Below, in pieces: positions 1 through 12,189 of a stretch of 64,000 nucleotides of DNA; position 1 is the first letter of the stretch, and each line of letters starts with the position of its first letter. The notes beneath the pieces are model-generated. The model did not search any database. It saw only the letters and a list, made by a program, of their open reading frames with translations, and was not told where the DNA came from. The stretch spans positions 1-64,000 of the IMG/VR virus record IMGVR_UViG_3300020048_003367. One strand, given 5' to 3'. The translations under genes were made by a program, and so were the position numbers. This DNA is from a virus.

Positions 1-72
1 CAGGGTGAGATTTGAACTCACGGTTTTAGGGATTTGCAATCCCTTGCGTTGGGCCGCTCCGCCACCTGTGCA
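1..72 (-). tRNA. tRNA-Cys(GCA), 3' end cut by window edge
   Basis: RC anticodon arm GGGA-TTGCAAA-TCCC; T-loop GTTCAAATC. Confidence 0.9.
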
Positions 73-79
73 TAAAAAT

Positions 80-153
80 TGGTCTCGGTAGCAGGAATCG
101 AACCTACGCTCCTGCGTCCCAAACGCAGAGTGATACCATTTCACCATACCGAG
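80..153 (-). tRNA. tRNA-Pro(TGG)
   Basis: Cloverleaf, CTGCG-TTTGGGA-CGCAG, encoded CCA. Confidence 0.92.
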
Positions 154-162
154 AAAACTAAC

Positions 163-238
163 TGGTACATCCTGACGGGCTCGAACCGCCGACATCAACC
201 GTGTAAGGATCGCGCTCTACCAACTGAGCTAAGGATGC
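163..238 (-). tRNA. tRNA-Val(TAC)
   Basis: Cloverleaf, loop CTTACAC, CCA. Confidence 0.92.
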
Positions 239-245
239 AAAAAAC

Positions 246-319
246 TGGAGCGGGGTACGAGGATCGAACTCGTCTCACTAGCTTGGAAGGCTAGAGCACA
301 GCCACTATACCAACCCCGC
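246..319 (-). tRNA. tRNA-Gly(TCC)
   Basis: CTAGC-CTTCCAA-GCTAG, GCG acceptor, U73, CCA. Confidence 0.93.
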
Positions 320-332
320 GTTAAATACGTTC

Positions 333-497
333 ATGTATATATATGATGCTATCACCAAGACCGGACTACTAATCCACTTGTCCATGAGCGAAGAACACAC
401 TTTCTACATTCTTGTGTTTGACATTGACAACTTCAAGTTGACCATGAAGTTTTTTAACAATATCGAAACAGCACTTGCTTTTATACAAGAGCTTTGA
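333..497 (+). CDS. 54-aa hypothetical protein antisense to the tRNA array (not in ORF track)
   Basis: MYIYDAITKTGLLIHLSMSEEHTFYILVFDIDNFKLTMKFFNNIETALAFIQEL*; fills the gap between two tRNAs; TAAATA 5 nt before ATG. Confidence 0.65.
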   Translation: MYIYDAITKTGLLIHLSMSEEHTFYILVFDIDNFKLTMKFFNNIETALAFIQEL

Positions 498-498
498 T

Positions 499-573
499 TG
501 GTGGTTGTAGTTGGTATCGATCCAACCTCCTCGGCTTATGAAGCCGGTGCGCATCCGTCTACGCCACACAACC
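499..573 (-). tRNA. tRNA(CAT), Met or Ile2; atypical T-loop ATCGATA
   Basis: CCGGC-TTCATAA-GCCGA; CCA. Confidence 0.82.
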
Positions 574-579
574 AGATTC

Positions 580-656
580 TGGGGTATAGTATGGAATTCG
601 AATCCATGCTGACGGAATCACAATCCGTAGTGCTAACCGCTGACACTAACTACACC
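580..656 (-). tRNA. tRNA-His(GTG)
   Basis: ACGGA-TTGTGAT-TCCGT, G-1 and C73. Confidence 0.92.
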
Positions 657-764
657 ATATAGAAACACACTCATTTCCTAGCTTTCGGTAAGCATGCCTG
701 CTGTTTAGGATAGCACCTGCGTCCAGTTGCTAGGTATCCCGACCGTGAATGTGTTTTTATATGG
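655..764 (-). ncRNA. Long-stem element A (AAACACA...TGTGTTT family)
   Basis: Terminal inverted repeat ccatatagaaacacactca / tgaatgtgtttttatatgg. Confidence 0.55.
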
Positions 765-836
765 TAGGGGCACAGAGAATTGAACTCTGATAGGTCGGTT
801 AAAAGCCGACTACTTTAGCCGTTAAGTTATACCCCC
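762..836 (-). tRNA. tRNA-Lys(TTT)
   Basis: GTCGG-CTTTTAA-CCGAC, CCA. Confidence 0.92.
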
Positions 837-839
837 ATA

Positions 840-914
840 TGGTCCATGCTCTGAGAATCGAACTCAGTTTGTCCGGGTAAGAGCCGGGTACTTCGCCAGC
901 AAAGTTTAGCATGG
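840..914 (-). tRNA. tRNA-Lys(CTT)
   Basis: CCGG-CTCTTAC-CCGG, CCA. Confidence 0.88.
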
Positions 915-997
915 ATGGATCGTAAAGTTTTGTCTTTTACGTGCCATCCAGGACCATACGGGGGTCTAGGATGACACTAGAGTTTACCTCGTTTCAT
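913..997 (-). promoter_or_regulatory. Minigene MKRGKL* (977-997) plus two alternative hairpins directly upstream of tRNA-Lys
   Basis: AAAGG SD-like; GTGTCATCC/GGATGGCAC competes with GGATGG..CGTAAAAG/CTTTACG..CCATCC. Confidence 0.55.
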
Positions 998-1024
998 GTC
1001 GTTACCTTTTGTGTTTAAGTTCTA

Positions 1025-1053
1025 ATTATACAACAATTACAGAATGTTGTCAA
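1025..1053 (-). promoter_or_regulatory. sigma70 promoter
   Basis: Perfect TTGACA-N17-TATAAT. Confidence 0.9.
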
Positions 1054-1062
1054 CTGTTTTTT

Positions 1063-1140
1063 TGGTGCGTCCCGAGGAATTCGAATCCCCAACCTCACGG
1101 CTTCGTAGGCCGGTGTTCTATCCAGTTGAACTAGAGACGC
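1063..1140 (-). tRNA. tRNA-Arg(ACG)
   Basis: CGGC-CTACGAA-GCCG, CCA. Confidence 0.92.
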
Positions 1141-1148
1141 ATTGTGAG

Positions 1149-1224
1149 TGGTGCCACGAGCTGGACTCGAACCAGCCACACACAGATTTTCAGTCTGCTG
1201 CTCTACCTGATGAGCTACCGCGGC
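1149..1224 (-). tRNA. tRNA-Phe(GAA)
   Basis: GCAGA-CTGAAAA-TCTGT, CCA. Confidence 0.93.
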
Positions 1225-1281
1225 GAAAAGAAATAGTCCAGGGACTTTCGTCACGTCAGGAGTGAGTGTAGACTATAAGAG

Positions 1282-1355
1282 TGGTGCCCCACGACAGAAT
1301 CGAACTGCCATCACAGGATTACAAAACCAGTGTACTGCCATTGTACTAGTAGGGC
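1282..1355 (-). tRNA. tRNA-Thr(TGT), weak anticodon stem
   Basis: GCC acceptor, loop TTTGTAA, T-loop GTTCGATTC; two U-U mismatches in anticodon stem. Confidence 0.8.
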
Positions 1356-1360
1356 GAATT

Positions 1361-1435
1361 TGGCTCCTCGACCTGGGCTCGAACCAGGGACCAATTGATT
1401 AACAGTCAACTACTCTACCACTGAGCTATCGAGGA
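1361..1435 (-). tRNA. tRNA-Asn(GTT)
   Basis: TCC acceptor, GTTGA-CTGTTAA-TCAAT, G73. Confidence 0.93.
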
Positions 1436-1442
1436 ATAAACA

Positions 1443-1518
<76 letters not shown>

Positions 1519-1526
1519 ATGTTGTT

Positions 1527-1616
1527 TGGCGGAACGACTGAGACTCGAACTCAGAAAGCCACTTTCGTGACTCGATGGATTAGCAATCCACTCCAATACC
1601 ATTATGGGACCGTTCC
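1527..1616 (-). tRNA. tRNA-Ser(GCT)
   Basis: GTGGA-TTGCTAA-TCCAT, long variable arm, G73. Confidence 0.92.
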
Positions 1617-1662
1617 ACTGACTTTTTACTTATAGACAGCACTCGCACCGACTACAAAAACT

Positions 1663-1741
1663 TGGCTCCGTGTGTGAGATTCGAACTCACCTAGTCACTG
1701 ATTAACAGTCAGGTCCTTGCACCTAGCTTGGATTTCACGGA
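1663..1741 (-). tRNA. tRNA-Asn(GTT), second divergent copy
   Basis: CTGA-CTGTTAA-TCAG, GCCA end. Confidence 0.85.
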
Positions 1742-1749
1742 ATAAAAAT

Positions 1750-1823
1750 TGGTAGCTCCAACAAGAATCGAACTTGTAATAAAGGCTTATCAAGCCTCCG
1801 TTATACCGTTTAACTATAGAGCT
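1750..1823 (-). tRNA. tRNA-Ile(GAT)
   Basis: GAGGC-TTGATAA-GCCTT, CCA. Confidence 0.9.
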
Positions 1824-1830
1824 GCAATAC

Positions 1831-1904
1831 TGGCACGGGAACCTGGGATCGAACCAGGGACGACAGAGTCAAAGTCTGTTGTGTTACCTCTACACCATTC
1901 CCGA
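1831..1904 (-). tRNA. tRNA-Gln(TTG)
   Basis: ACAGA-CTTTGAC-TCTGT, GCCA. Confidence 0.92.
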
Positions 1905-1913
1905 ACAAAAACT

Positions 1914-1990
1914 TGGCGTACCGCCAGGGATTCGAACCCCGAACCGCTGGTTTTGGAGACCAGAACTCTGCCAATTGAGCTAGCGATACA
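1914..1990 (-). tRNA. tRNA-Trp(CCA)
   Basis: CTGGT-CTCCAAA-ACCAG, GCCA. Confidence 0.92.
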
Positions 1991-1998
1991 TTAACATA

Positions 1999-2073
1999 TG
2001 GTGGACCGTAACGGGATCGAACCGTTCCTTAAGGCTTGCAAAGCCCTCGTGCCCCCAACAACACTTACAGCCC
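1999..2073 (-). tRNA. tRNA-Ala(TGC)
   Basis: Loop TTTGCAA, G3:U70 pair, ACCA. Confidence 0.92.
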
Positions 2074-2076
2074 ATA

Positions 2077-2184
2077 CATTCTAAAACACACTATGAGAAT
2101 CACACTTCCCAAGTTCTCACGCTTGGTTACAACTAGAAGTTACGGACTGATTTGGCAGTCCTGTGAGGAGTGTGTTTTAGAATG
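2077..2184 (-). ncRNA. Long-stem element B
   Basis: cattctaaaacacact / agtgtgttttagaatg, perfect 16-bp terminal stem. Confidence 0.55.
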
Positions 2185-2325
2185 CAGTGTATTGCTACAC
2201 CACATGACGGGGTTGATACCCCGACCAGGAGTCTTACTAGTGCGTTCTCACCACACGTTCATGTATCCTGTCCGCCCGTTTGCCTAGTTTAGTGTGCTGG
2301 CTGAGTCCTCGTTACTCATTACACA
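2185..2325 (-). ncRNA. Multi-hairpin structured RNA immediately after the attenuator terminator
   Basis: RC hairpins CGGGG-TATCAA-CCCCG and GTGTA-GCAA-TACAC; long-range CATGA/TCATG and CAGGA/TCCTG. Confidence 0.45.
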
Positions 2326-2326
2326 T

Positions 2327-2363
2327 AAAGAAAAACCCTGGAGTTTTTAGTTCCAGGGTCTTT
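2327..2363 (-). terminator. Intrinsic terminator of attenuator 1
   Basis: RC AAGACCCTGGA-ACTAAAAAC-TCCAGGGTTTTTCTTT. Confidence 0.85.
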
Positions 2364-2384
2364 TGAGTTTGTTAGTTACTGCTG

Positions 2385-2516
2385 TTATGCGTAACCACCA
2401 CCTTCACAAGACCCTGCGACTCCCGGAATACTATTCACGCGACCAAAGGCGTGCGACCAGGCTGTATTCGCCTGGAGCATGGATTTAGTTTGCAGTGAAC
2501 AAGAGATAGAAGTCAT
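2385..2516 (-). CDS. Leader peptide 1, 43 aa (not in ORF track)
   Basis: MTSISCSLQTKSMLQANTAWSHAFGRVNSIPGVAGSCEGGGYA*; SD AAGGA; 3' part carries the antiterminator strand CAGGGTCTT. Confidence 0.75.
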   Translation of the reverse strand: MTSISCSLQTKSMLQANTAWSHAFGRVNSIPGVAGSCEGGGYA

Positions 2517-2564
2517 TTTGTTTCCTTGGGTTACTCAATCAGCATTGCTGCTGTTCAAGTGTTA

Positions 2565-2593
2565 ATTATACTTTACTTAGTGATTGTTGTCAA
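2565..2593 (-). promoter_or_regulatory. sigma70 promoter driving leader 1
   Basis: Perfect TTGACA-N17-TATAAT. Confidence 0.9.
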
Positions 2594-2639
2594 CCACTAA
2601 ATGTTTTCAGTGCTGTATTTATACAACACGCCTTGAAAT

Positions 2640-2713
2640 TGGATGCGGGTGACAGATTTGAACTGCCGATGCACCTGGCTTATGAGACCGGTGTGGTGAC
2701 CACCCTACCCGCG
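2640..2713 (-). tRNA. Initiator-like tRNA(CAT) with reduced D-arm
   Basis: C1:A72 mismatch (CGCGGGT/ACCCGCA), CTCATAA loop; D region only GGTG-GT-CACC. Confidence 0.7.
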
Positions 2714-2769
2714 TAATTATTTATATCACATTATAGCTGACATCACATATGACGTCAACTGATTTTGGA

Positions 2770-2960
2770 TAAACTGAGCAGCCTACTATCTGATGTTTAA
2801 AGGTACTGACCGCTTTGATGCGCTCACTTCCTTCCACCAACATGGCTCGACTGTGACTAGCAGTCATGGTAACTTAATCCCCAGAGGTAGTGGATCAACT
2901 GGTGTCCCTGATAGTTGGGCCCATCGTCATTGAGTTTTTAACACAAGCCACTCAGTTTAA
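2770..2960 (-). ncRNA. ~190-nt RNA closed by a terminal stem
   Basis: RC AAACTGAGTGGCTT...AGGCTGCTCAGTTT; no convincing ORF. Confidence 0.4.
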
Positions 2961-2965
2961 CTTTT

Positions 2966-3057
2966 TGGTACCCCCACCGGGAATTGAACCCAGATGAACC
3001 AATTATCTGTTGCTTACGGGATATAAATCCGCCGTTTTACCATTAAACTATAGGGGT
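2966..3057 (-). tRNA. tRNA-Ile(TAT) with long variable region
   Basis: GCGGA-TTTATAT-CCCGT; ~22-nt variable region; ACCA. Confidence 0.75.
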
Positions 3058-3063
3058 AATTTC

Positions 3064-3155
3064 CCATTGAAAAACACACTCTTGAACAGTCCATAAGCGG
3101 TTACTCGCTGTCTCCCTAGGTAACAGGGCGAATCTGTAAGTGTGTTTATCAATGG
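3064..3155 (-). ncRNA. Long-stem element C
   Basis: ccattgaaaaacacact / agtgtgtttatcaatgg. Confidence 0.55.
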
Positions 3156-3226
3156 CGTCGCATACGGGTTACGATCCTGTCTGGTCACCTTTCAAGGTGA
3201 TAACCTCACCAGAAGTCTAATGCGAC
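3153..3226 (-). tRNA. Glu-like tRNA body with a non-7-nt anticodon loop (pseudo- or decoy tRNA)
   Basis: Acceptor GTCGCAT/ATGCGAC-GCCA; TCACC-TTGAAA-GGTGA; T-loop ATCGTAA. Confidence 0.6.
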
Positions 3227-3453
3227 ATGTTGAATTTGAAAGTAGTTGCGCCACTCGTTCATCGCAACCATTCGCCCGATTGCACTAGCCCGGACAGGAA
3301 GTGGTAAGTCACTTGGGATACTAGTCCAGTTTGTCTCCGTTACAGACACCACCCTTCCGAGTGGTTGGGAGTTGAACCCATCACCTTCTACTAACTTGGT
3401 CCTTCGAAGAAACCTCATTAGCGTGTTGTTCTCTTGCTGACACTCTCAAAACT

Positions 3454-3528
3454 TGGCGACTCGTGGGAGAATCGAACTCCCGTAAGCGGATAGACAATCC
3501 GCAGTAATGACCTCTATACGAACGAGCC
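3454..3528 (-). tRNA. tRNA-Asp(GTC)
   Basis: GCGGA-TTGTCTA-TCCGC, GCCA. Confidence 0.92.
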
Positions 3529-3534
3529 TTAACT

Positions 3535-3623
3535 TGGTGGAGTGTGATAGAATCGAACTACTTGGCAACCACCCCACTTGACAATGCCTACCGGGTTACA
3601 GCCGGCAATGGGGAACACACTCC
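3535..3623 (-). tRNA. D-armless tRNA-Tyr(GTA)-like RNA
   Basis: Acceptor GGAGTGT/ACACTCC-ACCA, GCCGG-CTGTAAC-CCGGT, normal T arm; only ~10 nt replace the D arm. Confidence 0.7.
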
Positions 3624-3743
3624 AAAAACTTTAGACTACTAGACCCGATCATAACTGCAACCAAGCAGCATGGCAACGGATTTTTCATCAGGGCGGCGTA
3701 CTGCATTCTGCTGGTTAGGCGTCCTGCCTCGGCAACCCAAAAC

Positions 3744-3828
3744 TGGTGGAGATGATAGGGATCGAACCTATCGTGACCGAAGTCGGAGGAGTTACAGTCC
3801 CCTGCCACACCATTGCGGCGTCATCTCC
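3744..3828 (-). tRNA. tRNA-Tyr(GTA)
   Basis: GGGGA-CTGTAAC-TCCTC, variable arm, ACCA. Confidence 0.92.
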
Positions 3829-3833
3829 AGATA

Positions 3834-3906
3834 GCAGTTGGAATCTTACTTCGTCACGCTCTAGACGTAACGGTCTGATGGAGCAAACCACGATTCAAGC
3901 AACTGC
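3834..3906 (-). ncRNA. Small stem-closed RNA between tRNA-Asp and tRNA-Tyr
   Basis: RC GCAGTTG..GAATC...GATTC-CAACTGC. Confidence 0.4.
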
Positions 3907-3913
3907 CAAAACT

Positions 3914-3988
3914 TGGCGCGACATGGGAGAATCGAACTCCCGTCTTCGGATAGACAATCCGAGATAATGACCATTATATGAATGCCGC
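3914..3988 (-). tRNA. tRNA-Asp(GTC), second copy
   Basis: TCGGA-TTGTCTA-TCCGA, GCCA. Confidence 0.92.
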
Positions 3989-3994
3989 TAAAAT

Positions 3995-4195
3995 TGGATA
4001 AGCTACTTGTTTCCACGCAAGCCCTTAATTGAGTTGTTACACTGTCCATCTCCATTTATTCGAAGTCTGTGTGCAGTTGAGATTCTGCCTATCAGATTCT
4101 GCGGGGGTAGTTTCCATCCCTGCGCTTACGGTCTTCTGCCACCGGAACTCTGTCGCTATTCAAACGCTACTTTAAAGAAAGTAGTAACTGGATTC
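3995..4195 (-). ncRNA. ~200-nt structured RNA candidate
   Basis: RC terminal pairing CTACTT/AAGTAG; internal hairpins CCGGTGGCAGAAGACCG and GGGATGGAAACTACCC. Confidence 0.4.
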
Positions 4196-4281
4196 TTGAC
4201 GCAATCGGAACAGTACTCCGATATCTACACTAAGGTACCCTAGTGTCGTTTTGTTCTAGTATTAAACTATGCGAAATTCTT

Positions 4282-4356
4282 TGGAAGAGCATAGGAGAAT
4301 CGAACTCCTCTTGGCTGGATGAAAACCAGCTGTCCTAACCGATAGACGAATGCTCC
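4282..4356 (-). tRNA. tRNA-Glu(TTC)
   Basis: GCTGG-TTTTCAT-CCAGC, T-loop GTTCGATTC, CCA. Confidence 0.88.
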
Positions 4357-4420
4357 ATGTAAAAATTCACTGTGCTCATCTGCTTATTAAGGCGATTTGA
4401 CTGTTCGGCACAGTGAATAA

Positions 4421-4502
4421 AATCATATTGAAACACACTGGATAACCACCATACTTCCGGGTCTTACGCCGGCTATGTCTCTCAGAATGTTTCAATATGA
4501 TT
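4421..4502 (-). ncRNA. Long-stem element D
   Basis: aatcatattgaaaca / tgtttcaatatgatt, 15-bp stem. Confidence 0.5.
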
Positions 4503-4597
4503 CCTCGCTACACGTTCTTTCACAAGATTGTGGACTGTTATCACTGGGCAACAAAATCGTGCTTTGTGTTGTCTTGCGAGGATATCATACAAGTAAG

Positions 4598-4638
4598 TTT
4601 TTAAGGAACCTTACAGCAGCTACTCGATCGTTTGCTGC
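4598..4638 (-). promoter_or_regulatory. boxB-like hairpin plus boxA-like antitermination site
   Basis: RC CAGCAAAC...GCTGCTG then GTTCCTTAAAAA (cf. rrn boxA GYTCTTTAANA). Confidence 0.5.
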
Positions 4639-4647
4639 TAAGTGTTT

Positions 4648-4676
4648 ATTATAACACTGTTTGGAATATTCGTCAA
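4648..4676 (-). promoter_or_regulatory. sigma70 promoter (tandem, proximal)
   Basis: TTGACG-N17-TATAAT, extended -10 TG. Confidence 0.85.
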
Positions 4677-4743
4677 CTGCTTCTGTGTCTCTTAGCAGTG
4701 CTACCGTTTCCGGAGCAGTTGTGTTTCTTCCTAACTAGCCACT

Positions 4744-4772
4744 AGTATAACACGATGTGCAATATTAGTCAA
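4744..4772 (-). promoter_or_regulatory. sigma70 promoter (tandem, middle)
   Basis: TTGACT-N17-TATACT, extended -10 TG. Confidence 0.8.
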
Positions 4773-4842
4773 CTTGTTTTGCAAAAGCCCCGCATCACTA
4801 CAGGGTCTTTGCAAACTTTGCTGTCTTTCCCGACTTGTATCT

Positions 4843-4871
4843 ATTATAACACTGTTTCAATTATTGGTCTA
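4843..4871 (-). promoter_or_regulatory. sigma70 promoter (tandem, distal)
   Basis: TAGACC-N17-TATAAT, extended -10 TG. Confidence 0.7.
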
Positions 4872-4877
4872 GCACTT

Positions 4878-4908
4878 AAAGAAAAACCCGCATCATGTGC
4901 GGGTCTTT
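4878..4908 (-). terminator. Intrinsic terminator of attenuator 2
   Basis: RC AAAGACCCGCA-CATGA-TGCGGGTTTTTCTTT. Confidence 0.85.
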
Positions 4909-4927
4909 GTGGAATGTAGTACTTTTG

Positions 4928-5026
4928 TTAACTACAATGACAAAGACCTCGCCCACAATCGTGTTCATAGGCCTGCTCATAATTGGCAGGTATGTTTTTG
5001 AACGCGAATGCTGTTTGTGTCATCAT
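4928..5026 (-). CDS. Leader peptide 2, 32 aa, probably leaderless (not in ORF track)
   Basis: MMTQTAFAFKNIPANYEQAYEHDCGRGLCHCS*; ATG 5 nt after TATAAT; 3' part GGTCTTTGT..TGTAGT is the antiterminator strand. Confidence 0.7.
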   Translation of the reverse strand: MMTQTAFAFKNIPANYEQAYEHDCGRGLCHCS

Positions 5027-5063
5027 AGTGTATTATATATATGCCTGTGAACTAAAAGTCAAT

Positions 5064-5090
5064 AAAAAAGGTGCCCGAAAGCACCTTTTT
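5064..5090 (-). terminator. Terminator after porin
   Basis: aaaaaaggtgc-ccgaaa-gcaccttttt. Confidence 0.8.
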
Positions 5091-5105
5091 GAACACATGC
5101 TTGGA

Positions 5106-5981
5106 TTAGAAGCGGTGTGTAATGCCCACGCCAACTTGACGGATGTCTGTTGCAGCATTGACATTGCGGTACGAAACACCGGCCACTGTTCGCTTGCTCA
5201 ACGCATAGTCCATGCCCAGGTTGTAGGCACGAACACCAGTGTTGGTATCGCCCACGCTGGCCTTGGCAGTGTATGCACCAAATGCTTGGCTCACACCAAC
5301 CAAGTGACCTTTAGAAGCCACAACACCTTGGTTGTCACTGTAGCTGTAGAACACATTGGTTCCGCCTAGTTTGGTAGTTGCGCCAACCACAGTGCTCTTT
5401 TCTGAGCCTGCTTCGTAACGAGCAACACTGGCTGCAACTGCGCCAAACTTGGCACCTGCAGAAACCGCAGTAGCTTCGGCACCTGCAGCGGTCAATGTAC
5501 GGTCAATACCGACTGTGACACCTGGCAGTGCAGTGAGGGCCACAAACACGCCATTGCTAACGCGAACGCCACGCAAGTTGTGGATGTCGCCAGCCACTGA
5601 TCCATAGTTGGTGTCAAATGCGTCCAAGGAGCTCACAGTGTTAAACAAGCTGTGTGTGTTGCGACCAAAGTCTACGCTACCAAAACGATTTGCCAGGCCC
5701 ACTGTGCTTTGACGATCGCCCAGTTGTGTGGCAGAGCCTGTTACAGGATCTTGGCTAGCAATACTAGTTTCGATCACAGCACGAGCGCTCATGCCATTGC
5801 CCAAGTCTTCTGTGACTCGGAAGCCAATACGACTGGTGTCATTTACAATGCTGGAAACTGCGGCAGCAGAACCAGTTCGAGTGCTATCCACAGTAGCGTT
5901 GATCTTGCCATATACAGTGACTTGAGCGGAGGCTGCAAAAGCAGCAGCGGCCAAAGTGGCTGCAATTAAGATTTTCTTCAT
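5106..5981 (-). CDS. Gram-negative trimeric porin (betaproteobacterial type)
   Basis: Signal peptide, VTVYG start, SRIGF..EDLGNG motif, C-terminal GITHRF. Confidence 0.92.
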   Translation of the reverse strand: MKKILIAATLAAAAFAASAQVTVYGKINATVDSTRTGSAAAVSSIVNDTSRIGFRVTEDLGNGMSARAVIETSIASQDPVTGSATQLGDRQSTVGLANRFGSVDFGRNTHSLFNTVSSLDAFDTNYGSVAGDIHNLRGVRVSNGVFVALTALPGVTVGIDRTLTAAGAEATAVSAGAKFGAVAASVARYEAGSEKSTVVGATTKLGGTNVFYSYSDNQGVVASKGHLVGVSQAFGAYTAKASVGDTNTGVRAYNLGMDYALSKRTVAGVSYRNVNAATDIRQVGVGITHRF

Positions 5982-6095
5982 TTTTAAGTTTCCTTTTGTT
6001 GATCGGCTACAGGATGTAACCTTGTGTAAATTTTACACTTGAACAGTTATTTAAGCGACCTGGCATTTGTCCAAAAGAAAACCCGCCGAAACGGG

Positions 6096-10115: not shown

Positions 10116-11029
10116 TTGCGTGGCTCTAGTGTAGGTAACAGTTGATATACCTTGATTGCTTCGCTTTGTATAAATTGTTGCAAATCTTTTGTATATCGCC
10201 CTTGGGTGATTGTTCCTAGTTTTGCGTAAGTGTTGGCCTCTGTTTTGGTTGCGTTGTCAAGGGCATTTTGTACTTGCTTGACCAAAACTGGGTCCGCTGA
10301 ATTGTTGGCAAACACCATGAACCAATTGATTGGTCCGCTAACTGCATTTATACCTTGTTCTTTTAATGTGGGCACATCGGGCATAGCTGGATGACGTAGT
10401 TTTCCAGTCACTCCTAATACTACCAACCGACCATCATCTAAATAAGGCTTGGCCCCGCTTAGAATGGAAAATACTGCACCTAAATTTCCTCCAGCAACAT
10501 CAATCAATGCCGGAGCTTCGCCCTTGTATGGCACATGAGTCATGTTCTGTTTAGTGTGCTGTTGTATCATGGCCATTGCGATAGAATTACCTGAGCCAAC
10601 TCCTGAACTTCCATAAAATACTTGAGACTTTAAAAACTTAGGCAATGTGTCTAGTGGGCCGTCTTTTTTGACCATCAAAAACATAGGCACAGCCCCCAAA
10701 TGAACAATGGGCTGAAAGTCAAGCATGGTGTATCCTGCGCCTGACTTGGTGCTGTTGACTACTACATTGAGACTGTGCAGCATCAGCACAGTTTCTTTGC
10801 CGGTTGATCGAGCTAGCATTTGGGCAGCAATGGCTCCACCTGCACCAGAATGAATCTCTGGTACAAAGTTATGTGCAGGAATACGCTCATTCAAGTGCTT
10901 GGCAATAATTCGTGCAGTTATGTCGCCCGACCCGCCAGGTGCGTACGGCACAATAAGTTTGATGTTGTCTGCTTGAGCAGCAAAACTGTACAAAGCTAAC
11001 GCGATGGCAGTTACAAAATGTTTTAACAT
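10112..11029 (-). CDS. Bug/TctC substrate-binding protein, second paralog
   Basis: IKLIVPYAPGGSGD, GAGGAIA, HVPYKG, PDVPTLKEQG. Confidence 0.92.
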   Translation of the reverse strand: MLKHFVTAIALALYSFAAQADNIKLIVPYAPGGSGDITARIIAKHLNERIPAHNFVPEIHSGAGGAIAAQMLARSTGKETVLMLHSLNVVVNSTKSGAGYTMLDFQPIVHLGAVPMFLMVKKDGPLDTLPKFLKSQVFYGSSGVGSGNSIAMAMIQQHTKQNMTHVPYKGEAPALIDVAGGNLGAVFSILSGAKPYLDDGRLVVLGVTGKLRHPAMPDVPTLKEQGINAVSGPINWFMVFANNSADPVLVKQVQNALDNATKTEANTYAKLGTITQGRYTKDLQQFIQSEAIKVYQLLPTLEPRK

Positions 11030-11031
11030 TG

Positions 11032-12189
11032 TTATTTTCCTAGATAATATGGGGGGCTTGTGTCTCTGAAAAAACCTTGAGACATACTTTTGGGATCACG
11101 TTTGCATGCATCAGGAGTTGTGCGCCATAAGTGCTCAAGGCCAACTCGCCAAGAATATTTAGCGATGTCCGAATCAGGCAAATTAAAAAACCAAGTGTCT
11201 CGCGGTGTAAAAAATGTGCTCTTTGTCTTGGCCTGAAATGGAACTTGCTGCCACCAAGGATAGATCAATTGGTTTATAGTGCTCAATGTGAGCCAAAGCA
11301 CTTGTCCTTGGTAAGTGAACGATACCAGGCCAATTCTTTCTGTAGTAACACCGGGGGTGGTATTGTTTGCACTCTTGAGAAAACGTTTGACTACGTGAGC
11401 CTGCTTGATAGGAATCAGCGGAGCTTCTGGAGACCAATAAAACAATTCGTCATGTTCCCAGTCTCTATTGAGTTTTTGTACTAAGGGGCTTACTGCGGTA
11501 TCTACCATGTTGACAAATTGATAATAAAAATCTCCGTTGATACCGGTTACTTTGGGTTTGTCAACACCGTGAATGAATCCTACACGCAGCCCTTGATCCA
11601 CCATGTTCATCCAGTCTGGCACTTTAGTTTTTATATCTCTGCGAGCCAATACATTGGGATTTTGATAACTGTTTACATCGTAGATCCAGTCAAACTTGTC
11701 TTCTTTGCCTGAGAACGAATCCATTGTGATTTGAGAAAGATCTAGTATGCGATGCTTGAGCCAAGGTTGTTTGACTTGTGCTGACTCTATCCAAGGCACC
11801 GCCACATTATAAATTTCGGCATTGAGAAAGTTAAACTTGTCACCAGTGGCATCATAGTTGACGTAACTGACTACTTCATCAATGCGAATGTTAAAGTTTA
11901 AAAATGTGTTTAAAATATTACCCGAGTCTGCACCGCCTGAGAACCACAATACAAGATAATCATATTTTTCTCTCAGACGCTGTGCATGCTGTCGATACAA
12001 CTCTTCAAGAGATTCTGGCGGCTCTTGCAACCAATCAAAACTAGAATAAACTTCTTGGTTAAAATTCCAGGCAACTTTTTGTCCGCCTTTGGCATGCTCA
12101 TATGCTTCATTTCTACTGTAGCTTCGAAAATCGCCAACTTGATAAAAACCAAAACGATCTTGATTATTAGATATCTGTATAATTGTCAT
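11032..12189 (-). CDS. PP-loop family protein, second paralog
   Basis: LREKYDYLVLWFSGGADS; GVDKP; FYW.P..P...IKQAH shared with 8931-10115. Confidence 0.75.
   Translation of the reverse strand: MTIIQISNNQDRFGFYQVGDFRSYSRNEAYEHAKGGQKVAWNFNQEVYSSFDWLQEPPESLEELYRQHAQRLREKYDYLVLWFSGGADSGNILNTFLNFNIRIDEVVSYVNYDATGDKFNFLNAEIYNVAVPWIESAQVKQPWLKHRILDLSQITMDSFSGKEDKFDWIYDVNSYQNPNVLARRDIKTKVPDWMNMVDQGLRVGFIHGVDKPKVTGINGDFYYQFVNMVDTAVSPLVQKLNRDWEHDELFYWSPEAPLIPIKQAHVVKRFLKSANNTTPGVTTERIGLVSFTYQGQVLWLTLSTINQLIYPWWQQVPFQAKTKSTFFTPRDTWFFNLPDSDIAKYSWRVGLEHLWRTTPDACKRDPKSMSQGFFRDTSPPYYLGK

Follow-up and report, generated by a model that had tools for sequence, protein, structure and literature searches.

The attenuators of amino-acid operons (trpL, hisL, thrL, leuL and pheL; Rfam families Trp_leader, His_leader, Thr_leader and Leu_leader) display a short promoter-proximal open reading frame (ORF), an intrinsic terminator located ahead of the regulated genes, an antiterminator that shares a strand with this terminator, and an ORF placement that lets the position of the ribosome choose the fold. 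The element addressed here carries these parts. It lies near one end of a viral DNA stretch of 64,000 nucleotides (nt), hereafter the window, which is the first 64 kb of the IMG/VR record IMGVR_UViG_3300020048_003367 (101,862 bp, estimated to be 25% complete). Comparison with its relatives indicates that it is probably a transcription attenuator of the leader-peptide (ribosome-dependent) type, placed in control of a block of phage transfer RNA (tRNA) genes. It differs from the attenuators of amino-acid operons in its targets, which are phage tRNA genes rather than biosynthetic genes, and in its leader, which is long (37–45 codons in the family), mostly leaderless at the mRNA level and endowed with a conserved peptide core. 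Four structural features of the leader-peptide attenuator class are present, whereas two others, a run of one codon and a 1:2 protector hairpin, were not found.

Some leaders are multivalent, such as the ilvGMEDA leader with its Ile, Val and Leu codons, or the thr leader with its Thr and Ile codons. Like these, the leader described here might report several aminoacyl-tRNAs; however, the known multivalent leaders carry clusters for 2–3 related amino acids, whereas here about ten amino acids appear once each in the critical stretch, so that sensitivity to any single one is doubtful. The pyrBI attenuator includes a 44-codon leader, pyrL, whose ORF runs through the terminator, and a ribosome close to the polymerase prevents termination. 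Like the present element, it has a long leader devoid of special codons and a signal that lies in the closeness of the ribosome to RNA polymerase, but the ORF studied here ends 24 nt short of the shared strand, so that termination should be promoted by a ribosome that follows closely.

Two other classes share only some of these traits. In T-box riboswitches, tRNA status also decides between terminator and antiterminator, but through direct tRNA binding without translation, and the targets are synthetase or amino-acid genes. Arrest peptides (MifM, SecM, TnaC) also have a conserved Trp-containing core in a short regulatory ORF, but the known ones act on protein genes, at the level of translation or of Rho-dependent termination. 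By its physiology, the nearest published case is the trn operon of Anabaena sp. PCC 7120, a long tRNA array induced by translational stress (PMC8421152, PMC10272220), i.e. an accessory array turned on by impaired translation. Its mechanism differs, since the promoter is repressed by the ribbon-helix-helix (RHH) protein TrcR via direct repeats over the −10 box, and the words attenuation, leader peptide and terminator are absent from the text of PMC8421152. Full-text literature searches found no leader-peptide control of tRNA genes.

The element is encoded on the minus strand of the window and comprises the following parts, in the order of transcription:

2593–2565, minus strand: promoter, TTGACA (2593–2588), 17 nt, TATAAT (2570–2565), with 12/12 matches to the sigma-70 consensus
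2558–2517, minus strand: 5′ untranslated region (UTR) of about 45 nt, with the hairpin CAGCA-GCAA-TGCTG (2553–2540) and the Shine-Dalgarno (SD) sequence AAGGA (2527–2523), 6 nt ahead of the ATG
2516–2385, minus strand: leader ORF of 43 codons plus TAA, whose stop codon lies within the apical loop of the antiterminator hairpin
2461–2422, minus strand: stem-loop inside the ORF (codons 19–32), from the RNAalifold consensus
2438–2421, minus strand: codons Val-Asn-Ser-Ile-Pro-Gly (GTG AAT AGT ATT CCG GGA), amino acids invariant in 14 sequences
2416–2408, minus strand: region 2, the antiterminator 5′ strand CAGGGTCTT, which overlaps parts of codons 34–37
2407–2363, minus strand: interior of the antiterminator hairpin, TGA/TCA and GGTTAC/GTAAC helices with the stop codon in the loop
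2362–2352, minus strand: region 3, the shared strand AAGACCCTGGA, partner of region 2 or of region 4
2342–2327, minus strand: region 4 (TCCAGGG) and U-tract, i.e. the 3′ arm and tail of the intrinsic terminator

An initial annotation of this DNA, made from the letters alone, had proposed a perfect promoter, an SD sequence, a 43-codon ORF using 19 amino-acid types and an antiterminator that shares the 5′ arm of the terminator; all of these were recovered, Asp being the missing amino acid. The terminator (2361–2327, minus strand) consists of ACCCTGGA, a 9-nt loop, then TCCAGGGT and a TTTTTCTTT tail ending at 2327; because of this 9-nt loop, it was missed by a consensus terminator scan. The base of the antiterminator is formed by CAGGGTCTT (2416–2408), perfectly complementary to AAGACCCTG (2362–2354), i.e. 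to the terminator 5′ arm. A perfect complement of at least 9 nt to this zone within 107 nt upstream occurred in only 27–46 of 20,000 randomised upstream sequences (0.14–0.23%), and the 232-nt transcript folds at −81.2 kcal/mol versus −56.2 for its shuffles (z = −6.05), with the antiterminator in the minimum free energy (MFE) fold. The complement therefore exceeds what chance would produce.

The element belongs to a family with 14 distinct DNA members, all found in uncultured jumbo-phage contigs. Their DNA was located by back-translated patterns, and additional members are known as peptides from protein databases. The pattern search retrieved a near-identical copy in a 300-kb contig (L016) and the metagenome scan gave a single match (L020). 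A protein database search found relatives of 43 residues, and a profile search of 1.84 billion representatives added eight peptides of 37–43 residues, which have in common the motif W-S-[HR]-x4-V-N-S-I-P-G, kept even in relatives at about 45% identity. In the GTDB genomes, all 55 pattern matches were due to chance and no family member was present; GenBank phages contained no homologue, and neither did Pfam, PHROGs or the ESM Atlas. Rfam gave no leader-family or T-box match at the gathering score; with E values up to 10, only Thr_leader appeared, at 19.1 bits versus a gathering score of 55, and the match spanned the terminator only. Five candidates from the first pattern scan (L013–L015, L017 and L018) proved to be unrelated palindromes or coding sequence rather than relatives. 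Separately, six long proteins (P0005–P0008, P0012 and P0013; 540–1377 aa) each contain 5–15 stretches that match the leader profile, mostly at positions 27–43; these are probably Gly/Ser-rich repeats rather than relatives.

All 14 members carry a TTGAC-17-TA(T/C)AAT promoter, and nearly all display the same gene order: an initiator-like tRNA(CAU) gene, the element, a structured spacer of 200–250 nt and the tRNA block, which in the relatives begins with Ala/Trp/Gln/Ile/Ser/Asn/Thr/Gly. The terminator, a G+C-rich stem of 8–12 bp followed by a T5–7 tract, covaries strongly (99.4% of cells paired, 4 covarying pairs, 0/500 shuffles as good). In the base helix of the antiterminator, 84.7% of cells are paired versus 49–60% after a one-column slide, 14–23 of 500 shuffles are as good, and two pairs have changed on both sides (AU/GU/GC and UA/CG).

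Two members are particularly informative about what is being conserved. In L049, a U-to-C change turns the shared strand from ACCCTGGA into ACCCCAGG, and the two strands that pair with it both have G (terminator, CCTGGGGT; ORF, CAGGGGTCC). L035 retains CAGGGTC in another reading frame, with Ile-Arg-Val-His replacing Val-Ala-Gly-Ser-Cys, which indicates that the constraint there bears on the RNA and not on the peptide. The interior helices of the antiterminator differ by subgroup but occupy the same place (GAAG/CTTC, ACGAT/GTCGT, GTGTA/TACAC, AGATTC/GAATCT), and across subgroups the stop codon always lies inside or beside this interior. With predicted energies of −18 to −30 kcal/mol versus −14 to −18 for the terminator, the antiterminator is the more stable fold in 14/14 members, and it beats the terminator in the full-length MFE fold in 11 of them. 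All members fold better than their own shuffles (z = −2.6 to −5.7).

Within the ORF, the stem-loop 2461–2422 pairs CCUGG with CCAGG around a CACGC/GCGUG hairpin; in the window, these strands are CCTGG (2461–2457) with CCGGG (2426–2422), and CACGC (2453–2449) with GCGTG (2440–2436). In the alignment (columns 139–178), 97.1% of cells are paired and 4/500 shuffles are as good. It is better supported than the helices that single-sequence MFE folding placed in the 5′ half of the ORF (alignment columns 92–99/162–169 and 125–130/138–143; 87% paired, 81/500 shuffles), which were not retained. This stem-loop, which holds candidate regulatory codons, may act as an RNA polymerase pause or synchronising hairpin.

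The leader ORF, open in 14/14 DNA members and in all gene calls, looks translated, as judged from several features of its variation. In ten members, the −10 box ends 6–10 nt ahead of ATG(ATG), so that the mRNA would begin at or beside the start codon, i.e. these ORFs are leaderless; the four others, including the window, have a 47–48-nt UTR and an AAGGA at the correct distance. The start signal thus appears to have been exchanged within the family, yet a start signal has always been kept. In codons 19–32, column entropy at codon positions 1, 2 and 3 is 0.25, 0.44 and 0.75, and the Val-Asn-Ser-Ile-Pro-Gly codons differ among the 14 sequences solely at the third base of those for Ser, Pro and Gly. 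The indels of the N-terminal half of the ORF are of 3 or 6 nt, and in L035 a 2-nt gap and a 1-nt gap jointly restore the frame.

Furthermore, the position of the stop codon is constrained. It precedes region 3 by 17–27 nt in all members and follows region 2 by 4–28 nt, which implies that a ribosome would always cross region 2 and never reach the shared strand. The Val-Asn-Ser-Ile-Pro-Gly codons end 4 nt ahead of the 9-nt antiterminator strand in the window, and 5–7 nt ahead of its GGGTC core family-wide.

Sequence comparison provides the individual parts with their conservation, the two pairings that compete and the indications of translation; from these we infer the role of the ribosome position, the direction of the response and the signal sensed. 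The consensus promoter would produce a short mRNA whose 37–45-codon ORF is translated at once. The preferred fold of this RNA would be the long hairpin whose base pairs region 2, located within the last codons of the ORF, with region 3; the terminator would then be blocked and the polymerase would read into the tRNA genes. A ribosome that keeps up with the polymerase would melt or occupy region 2 and the interior of the hairpin, then halt at the stop codon 17–27 nt short of region 3, leaving the latter free to pair with region 4, and transcription would stop at 2327. Slow decoding before about codon 30, above all at the conserved Ala-Trp-Ser-His…Val-Asn-Ser-Ile-Pro-Gly codons, would instead leave region 2 free and lead to read-through. 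The net outcome would be a negative feedback in which a shortage of decoding capacity triggers the synthesis of phage tRNAs. As no protector hairpin was found, an untranslated leader would also read through.

Several observations weigh against this attenuator reading. The leader has no run of one regulatory codon, its codons being single and dispersed, and codons readable by the downstream tRNAs are not enriched (62.5% versus 57.8% genome-wide, P = 0.37). GTG, AAT and ATT are invariant although the phage uses these codons in only 32–50% of cases, so that part of the conservation must lie at the RNA level. The covariation support for the antiterminator base appears modest, since most of its columns are invariant. 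The search for a protector hairpin sequestering region 2 found none; the stem-loop 2461–2422 sits 5 nt upstream and excludes region 2. In the subtype represented by the window, region 2 ends 22 nt ahead of the stop codon, and a ribosome waiting there would leave it uncovered, so that termination would rest on timing; in the L036 subgroup, the two are 4 nt apart and a ribosome halted at the stop does cover region 2. Finally, phage-specific promoters may exist downstream of the terminator, the promoter scan described below being limited to sigma-70-like sequences.

The same conservation of the core could reflect an arrest peptide, in which the nascent Trp…Val-Asn-Ser-Ile-Pro-Gly chain pauses the ribosome with residues 31–36 in the P site over region 2, termination being set by a signal-tuned arrest and not by tRNA supply. 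This is unlikely, even though it would account for the synonymous variation, the amino acids being kept while Ser alternates between TCG and TCA or AGT and AGC, Pro between CCG, CCA and CCC, and Gly between all four codons. It would likewise fit the retention of the whole motif by relatives at about 45% identity and the invariant Trp found 11–16 residues ahead of Pro31 to Ser36. The leader spacing W-x5-R-[MV]-N-S is as in MifM, a resemblance that is a lead only. In B. subtilis MifM, W73, M80 and N81 are critical, alongside F78, R79 and S82, and stalling occurs at D89–S92 (PMC4423224). The likeness is however confined to four residues, and the arrest of MifM occurs only with Bacillus ribosomes (PMC4423224). 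Moreover, RNA pairing (the CCUGG/CCAGG stem and the CACGC/GCGUG hairpin) accounts for much of the conserved stretch, and a sister leader located at 5062–4878 encodes an unrelated peptide in which the conserved residues are merely Ile (AUA), Tyr, Glu and Asp.

It is also improbable that the element is just a small phage gene of the ordinary kind, whose product, the 43-residue peptide, would for instance act on the host early in infection. The upstream hairpin would then be mRNA-stabilising or translation-coupled and read-through incidental. Conservation of the peptide at the amino-acid level and the possession of its own consensus promoter and terminator agree with such a gene, and trans-acting leader peptides are known, such as peTrpL of Sinorhizobium (PMC7298713). 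But the N-terminal half of the peptide drifts freely and no Pfam, PHROG or Atlas relative exists for it. Furthermore, a small gene leaves four features unexplained, i.e. the terminator 5′ arm always engaged by a stronger upstream hairpin, the CAGGGTC kept across a frame change, the fixed distance from the stop codon to region 3 and the near-constant position at the head of the same tRNA block.

It is very unlikely that the element works as a structured non-coding RNA with an incidental frame, whether as an independently transcribed and terminated small RNA or as a processing or spacer element of the tRNA precursor: although the very strong folding of the window (z = −6.05) and the family (z = −2.6 to −5.7), the nucleotide invariance of GTG, AAT and ATT and the presence of other conserved structured segments flanking these tRNA arrays would suit such an RNA, this reading runs against the ATG placed at the transcription start (10 members) or behind an SD (4), the three-base periodicity of the variation, the in-frame indels with the compensating 2+1-nt pair of L035, the ORF open in every member and gene call, and the poor functioning expected of a terminator pre-empted by a stronger upstream hairpin.

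If the element is an attenuator, as we consider probable, the question arises of what its leader senses. The initial annotation had stressed the use of 19 of the 20 amino acids and had read the single dispersed codons as suggesting a multiplex sensor. The argument from the amino-acid count carries no weight: at least 19 types in 43 codons are expected with P = 0.13 under the proteome composition of the window, and the relatives use 16–20 types, with a mean of 18 versus about 17 under the null, so that selection for amino-acid diversity was rejected. The attenuator proposal itself thus stands in part, as a translated leader whose 3′ part competes with a terminator before tRNA genes in 14 relatives, without the support drawn from the amino-acid count. 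Simultaneous sensing of several amino acids nevertheless remains plausible.

The evidence from the codons themselves is mixed. In the leader, 21 of 31 residues are amino acids served by the downstream block, an enrichment over the 43% baseline (P = 0.005), and 12 of 32 leader codons, five UCN Ser codons among them, are unreadable by any downstream tRNA of the window. The conserved Ala-Trp-Ser-His…Val-Asn-Ser-Ile-Pro-Gly codons lie just 5′ of the antiterminator strand, where classical attenuators hold their regulatory codons, and L044/L048, the sole subgroup with Asp and Tyr codons in this critical stretch, is also the sole one with those tRNAs downstream. The N-terminal halves drift freely across the family and are biased to Thr, Ser, Gln, Met, Lys, Leu and Ala, Asp, Glu and Gly being found in 0/476 pooled residues. 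The idea that codons 1–33 lack Asp, Glu and Tyr as a mirror of the corresponding tRNAs being encoded upstream was weakened by this lack of Gly as well as Asp and Glu, which fits a G-poor 5′ end; the Tyr codon of the L036 group, present although tRNA-Tyr is upstream, also counts against it, while L044/L048 speaks for it.

A second putative attenuator is present in the window at 5062–4878 (minus strand), with the same layout, an unrelated peptide and a leaderless ORF of 25–32 codons; in its ORF, GGTCTTTGT pairs with ACAAAGACC of its terminator. This sister element also occurs at L030:~4640–4780, L002:~10960–11115, L004:~11930–12085 and L049:~4870–5000. It is conserved in five relatives and leaderless in 5/5. 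In each of these, an AUA codon and a Tyr/Glu/Asp cluster, matching the block that follows, lie just ahead of the antiterminator strand, and the leader is rich in Leu (5–7 residues) only where the block behind it holds tRNA-Leu genes. The sister element is the strongest hint of a block-wise matching between leaders and tRNAs, though few independent lineages are involved.

This leads to a wider and more tentative proposal, which is possible but which we regard as doubtful. The tRNA arrays of jumbo phages would be split in blocks, each headed by its own, usually leaderless, attenuator whose critical codons name the tRNAs of the block, and each block would be switched on separately when those tRNAs run short, for example under attack by a host anticodon nuclease. 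The Ala, Trp, Ser (AGY), Asn, Ile, Gly and other codons of the first attenuator would correspond to the Ala-Trp-Gln-Ile-Ser-Gly-Asn-Thr block, and the Ile (AUA), Tyr, Glu and Asp codons of the second, plus Leu only where Leu tRNAs are present, to the Glu-Asp-Tyr-Ile(UAU) block.

The surroundings of the element in the window include three further features:

2758–2640, minus strand: upstream neighbour, a promoter (2758–2730, 11/12 matches) and an initiator-like tRNA(CAU) gene (2713–2640), also present in most relatives
2326–2074, minus strand: structured spacer between the terminator and the first tRNA gene (tRNA-Ala), its conservation judged by eye
2073–1063, minus strand: tRNA block presumed to be gated, Ala, Trp, Gln, Ile, Ser, Gly, Asn, Thr, Phe and Arg (ARAGORN) plus a tRNA-like gene

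The DNA polymerase encoded by the window shares 51% identity with its counterpart in Sinorhizobium phage Phosso (469 kb) and 47% with the one in Agrobacterium phage Atu_ph07. All 27 tRNA genes of the window and a two-piece beta-type tmRNA lie on its minus strand. As first reported, no other strong promoter precedes 1053: a consensus scan of the minus strand from 2565 to 1053 found no other sigma-70-like promoter, the next consensus promoter being at 1053–1025, after the block. Between the terminator and this promoter, ARAGORN identifies 10 tRNA genes, so that the earlier count of at least 11 gated genes holds for ten, the eleventh being a tRNA-like gene recognised by reading alone. This possible gene (about 1742–1663, minus strand), missed by ARAGORN, has an acceptor stem TCCGTG/CACGGA, an anticodon loop CTGTTAA (GUU, Asn), a normal T arm, an encoded CCA and an odd D region. 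Near-perfect sigma-70 promoters are unusually dense in the tRNA region (1053–1025, 2758–2730, 4676–4648, 4772–4744 and 4871–4843, all on the minus strand); for positions 1–6000, both strands pooled, 13 were found versus 7.6 expected.

Transcripts of the upstream tRNA(CAU) unit would run into the leader. This tRNA gene begins with CGCGGG and has a C1·A72 mismatch, resembling a bacterial initiator tRNA, and its counterpart in L041 also has GGG/CCC pairs in the anticodon stem; the copy of the window scores 20.9 bits versus a gathering score of 29 for the Rfam tRNA family. The vicinity of an initiator-like tRNA gene and a mostly leaderless ORF is a curious pairing. On the other side of the element, the spacer 2326–2074 includes a hairpin (2317–2303) with a conserved AACGAGG loop; the stem of this hairpin, GAGT/ACTC here, is GGC/GCC or GGGA/TCCC elsewhere in the family. 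The spacer also contains a GGGCGG box and an inverted repeat of 16 bp (2184–2169 with 2092–2077) flanking a variable insert.

Further upstream, a segment of about 190 nt located after tRNA-Ile(UAU) (2960–2770, minus strand) is kept at L002:13390–13590 and L004:13680–13880. The neighbouring porin-like protein is only 65% identical in these relatives. The segment may be a non-coding RNA. L002 and L004, which are independent contigs, have their 3′ ends at the same sequence (…CAGTTAATTGGTATGA), and L020:1–50 continues from there towards the tRNA(CAU) gene and the attenuator; this shared end looks like a recurrent assembly break within the tRNA array.

For decades, opinions have differed on why phages have tRNA genes and when they use them, codon compensation being opposed to escape from tRNA-cleaving defences (PMC10264068). 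If the attenuator reading is correct, the phage would gauge decoding capacity during infection and top up its tRNAs on demand, and ribosome-mediated attenuation, so far a matter of amino-acid and pyrimidine operons, would reach viruses and tRNA genes as well. With its leaderless and SD-led forms, the set of 14 natural variants would provide a compact system to study it. Were the more tentative block-wise proposal also true, these arrays would constitute a homeostat of tRNA supply, for which no published precedent was found.

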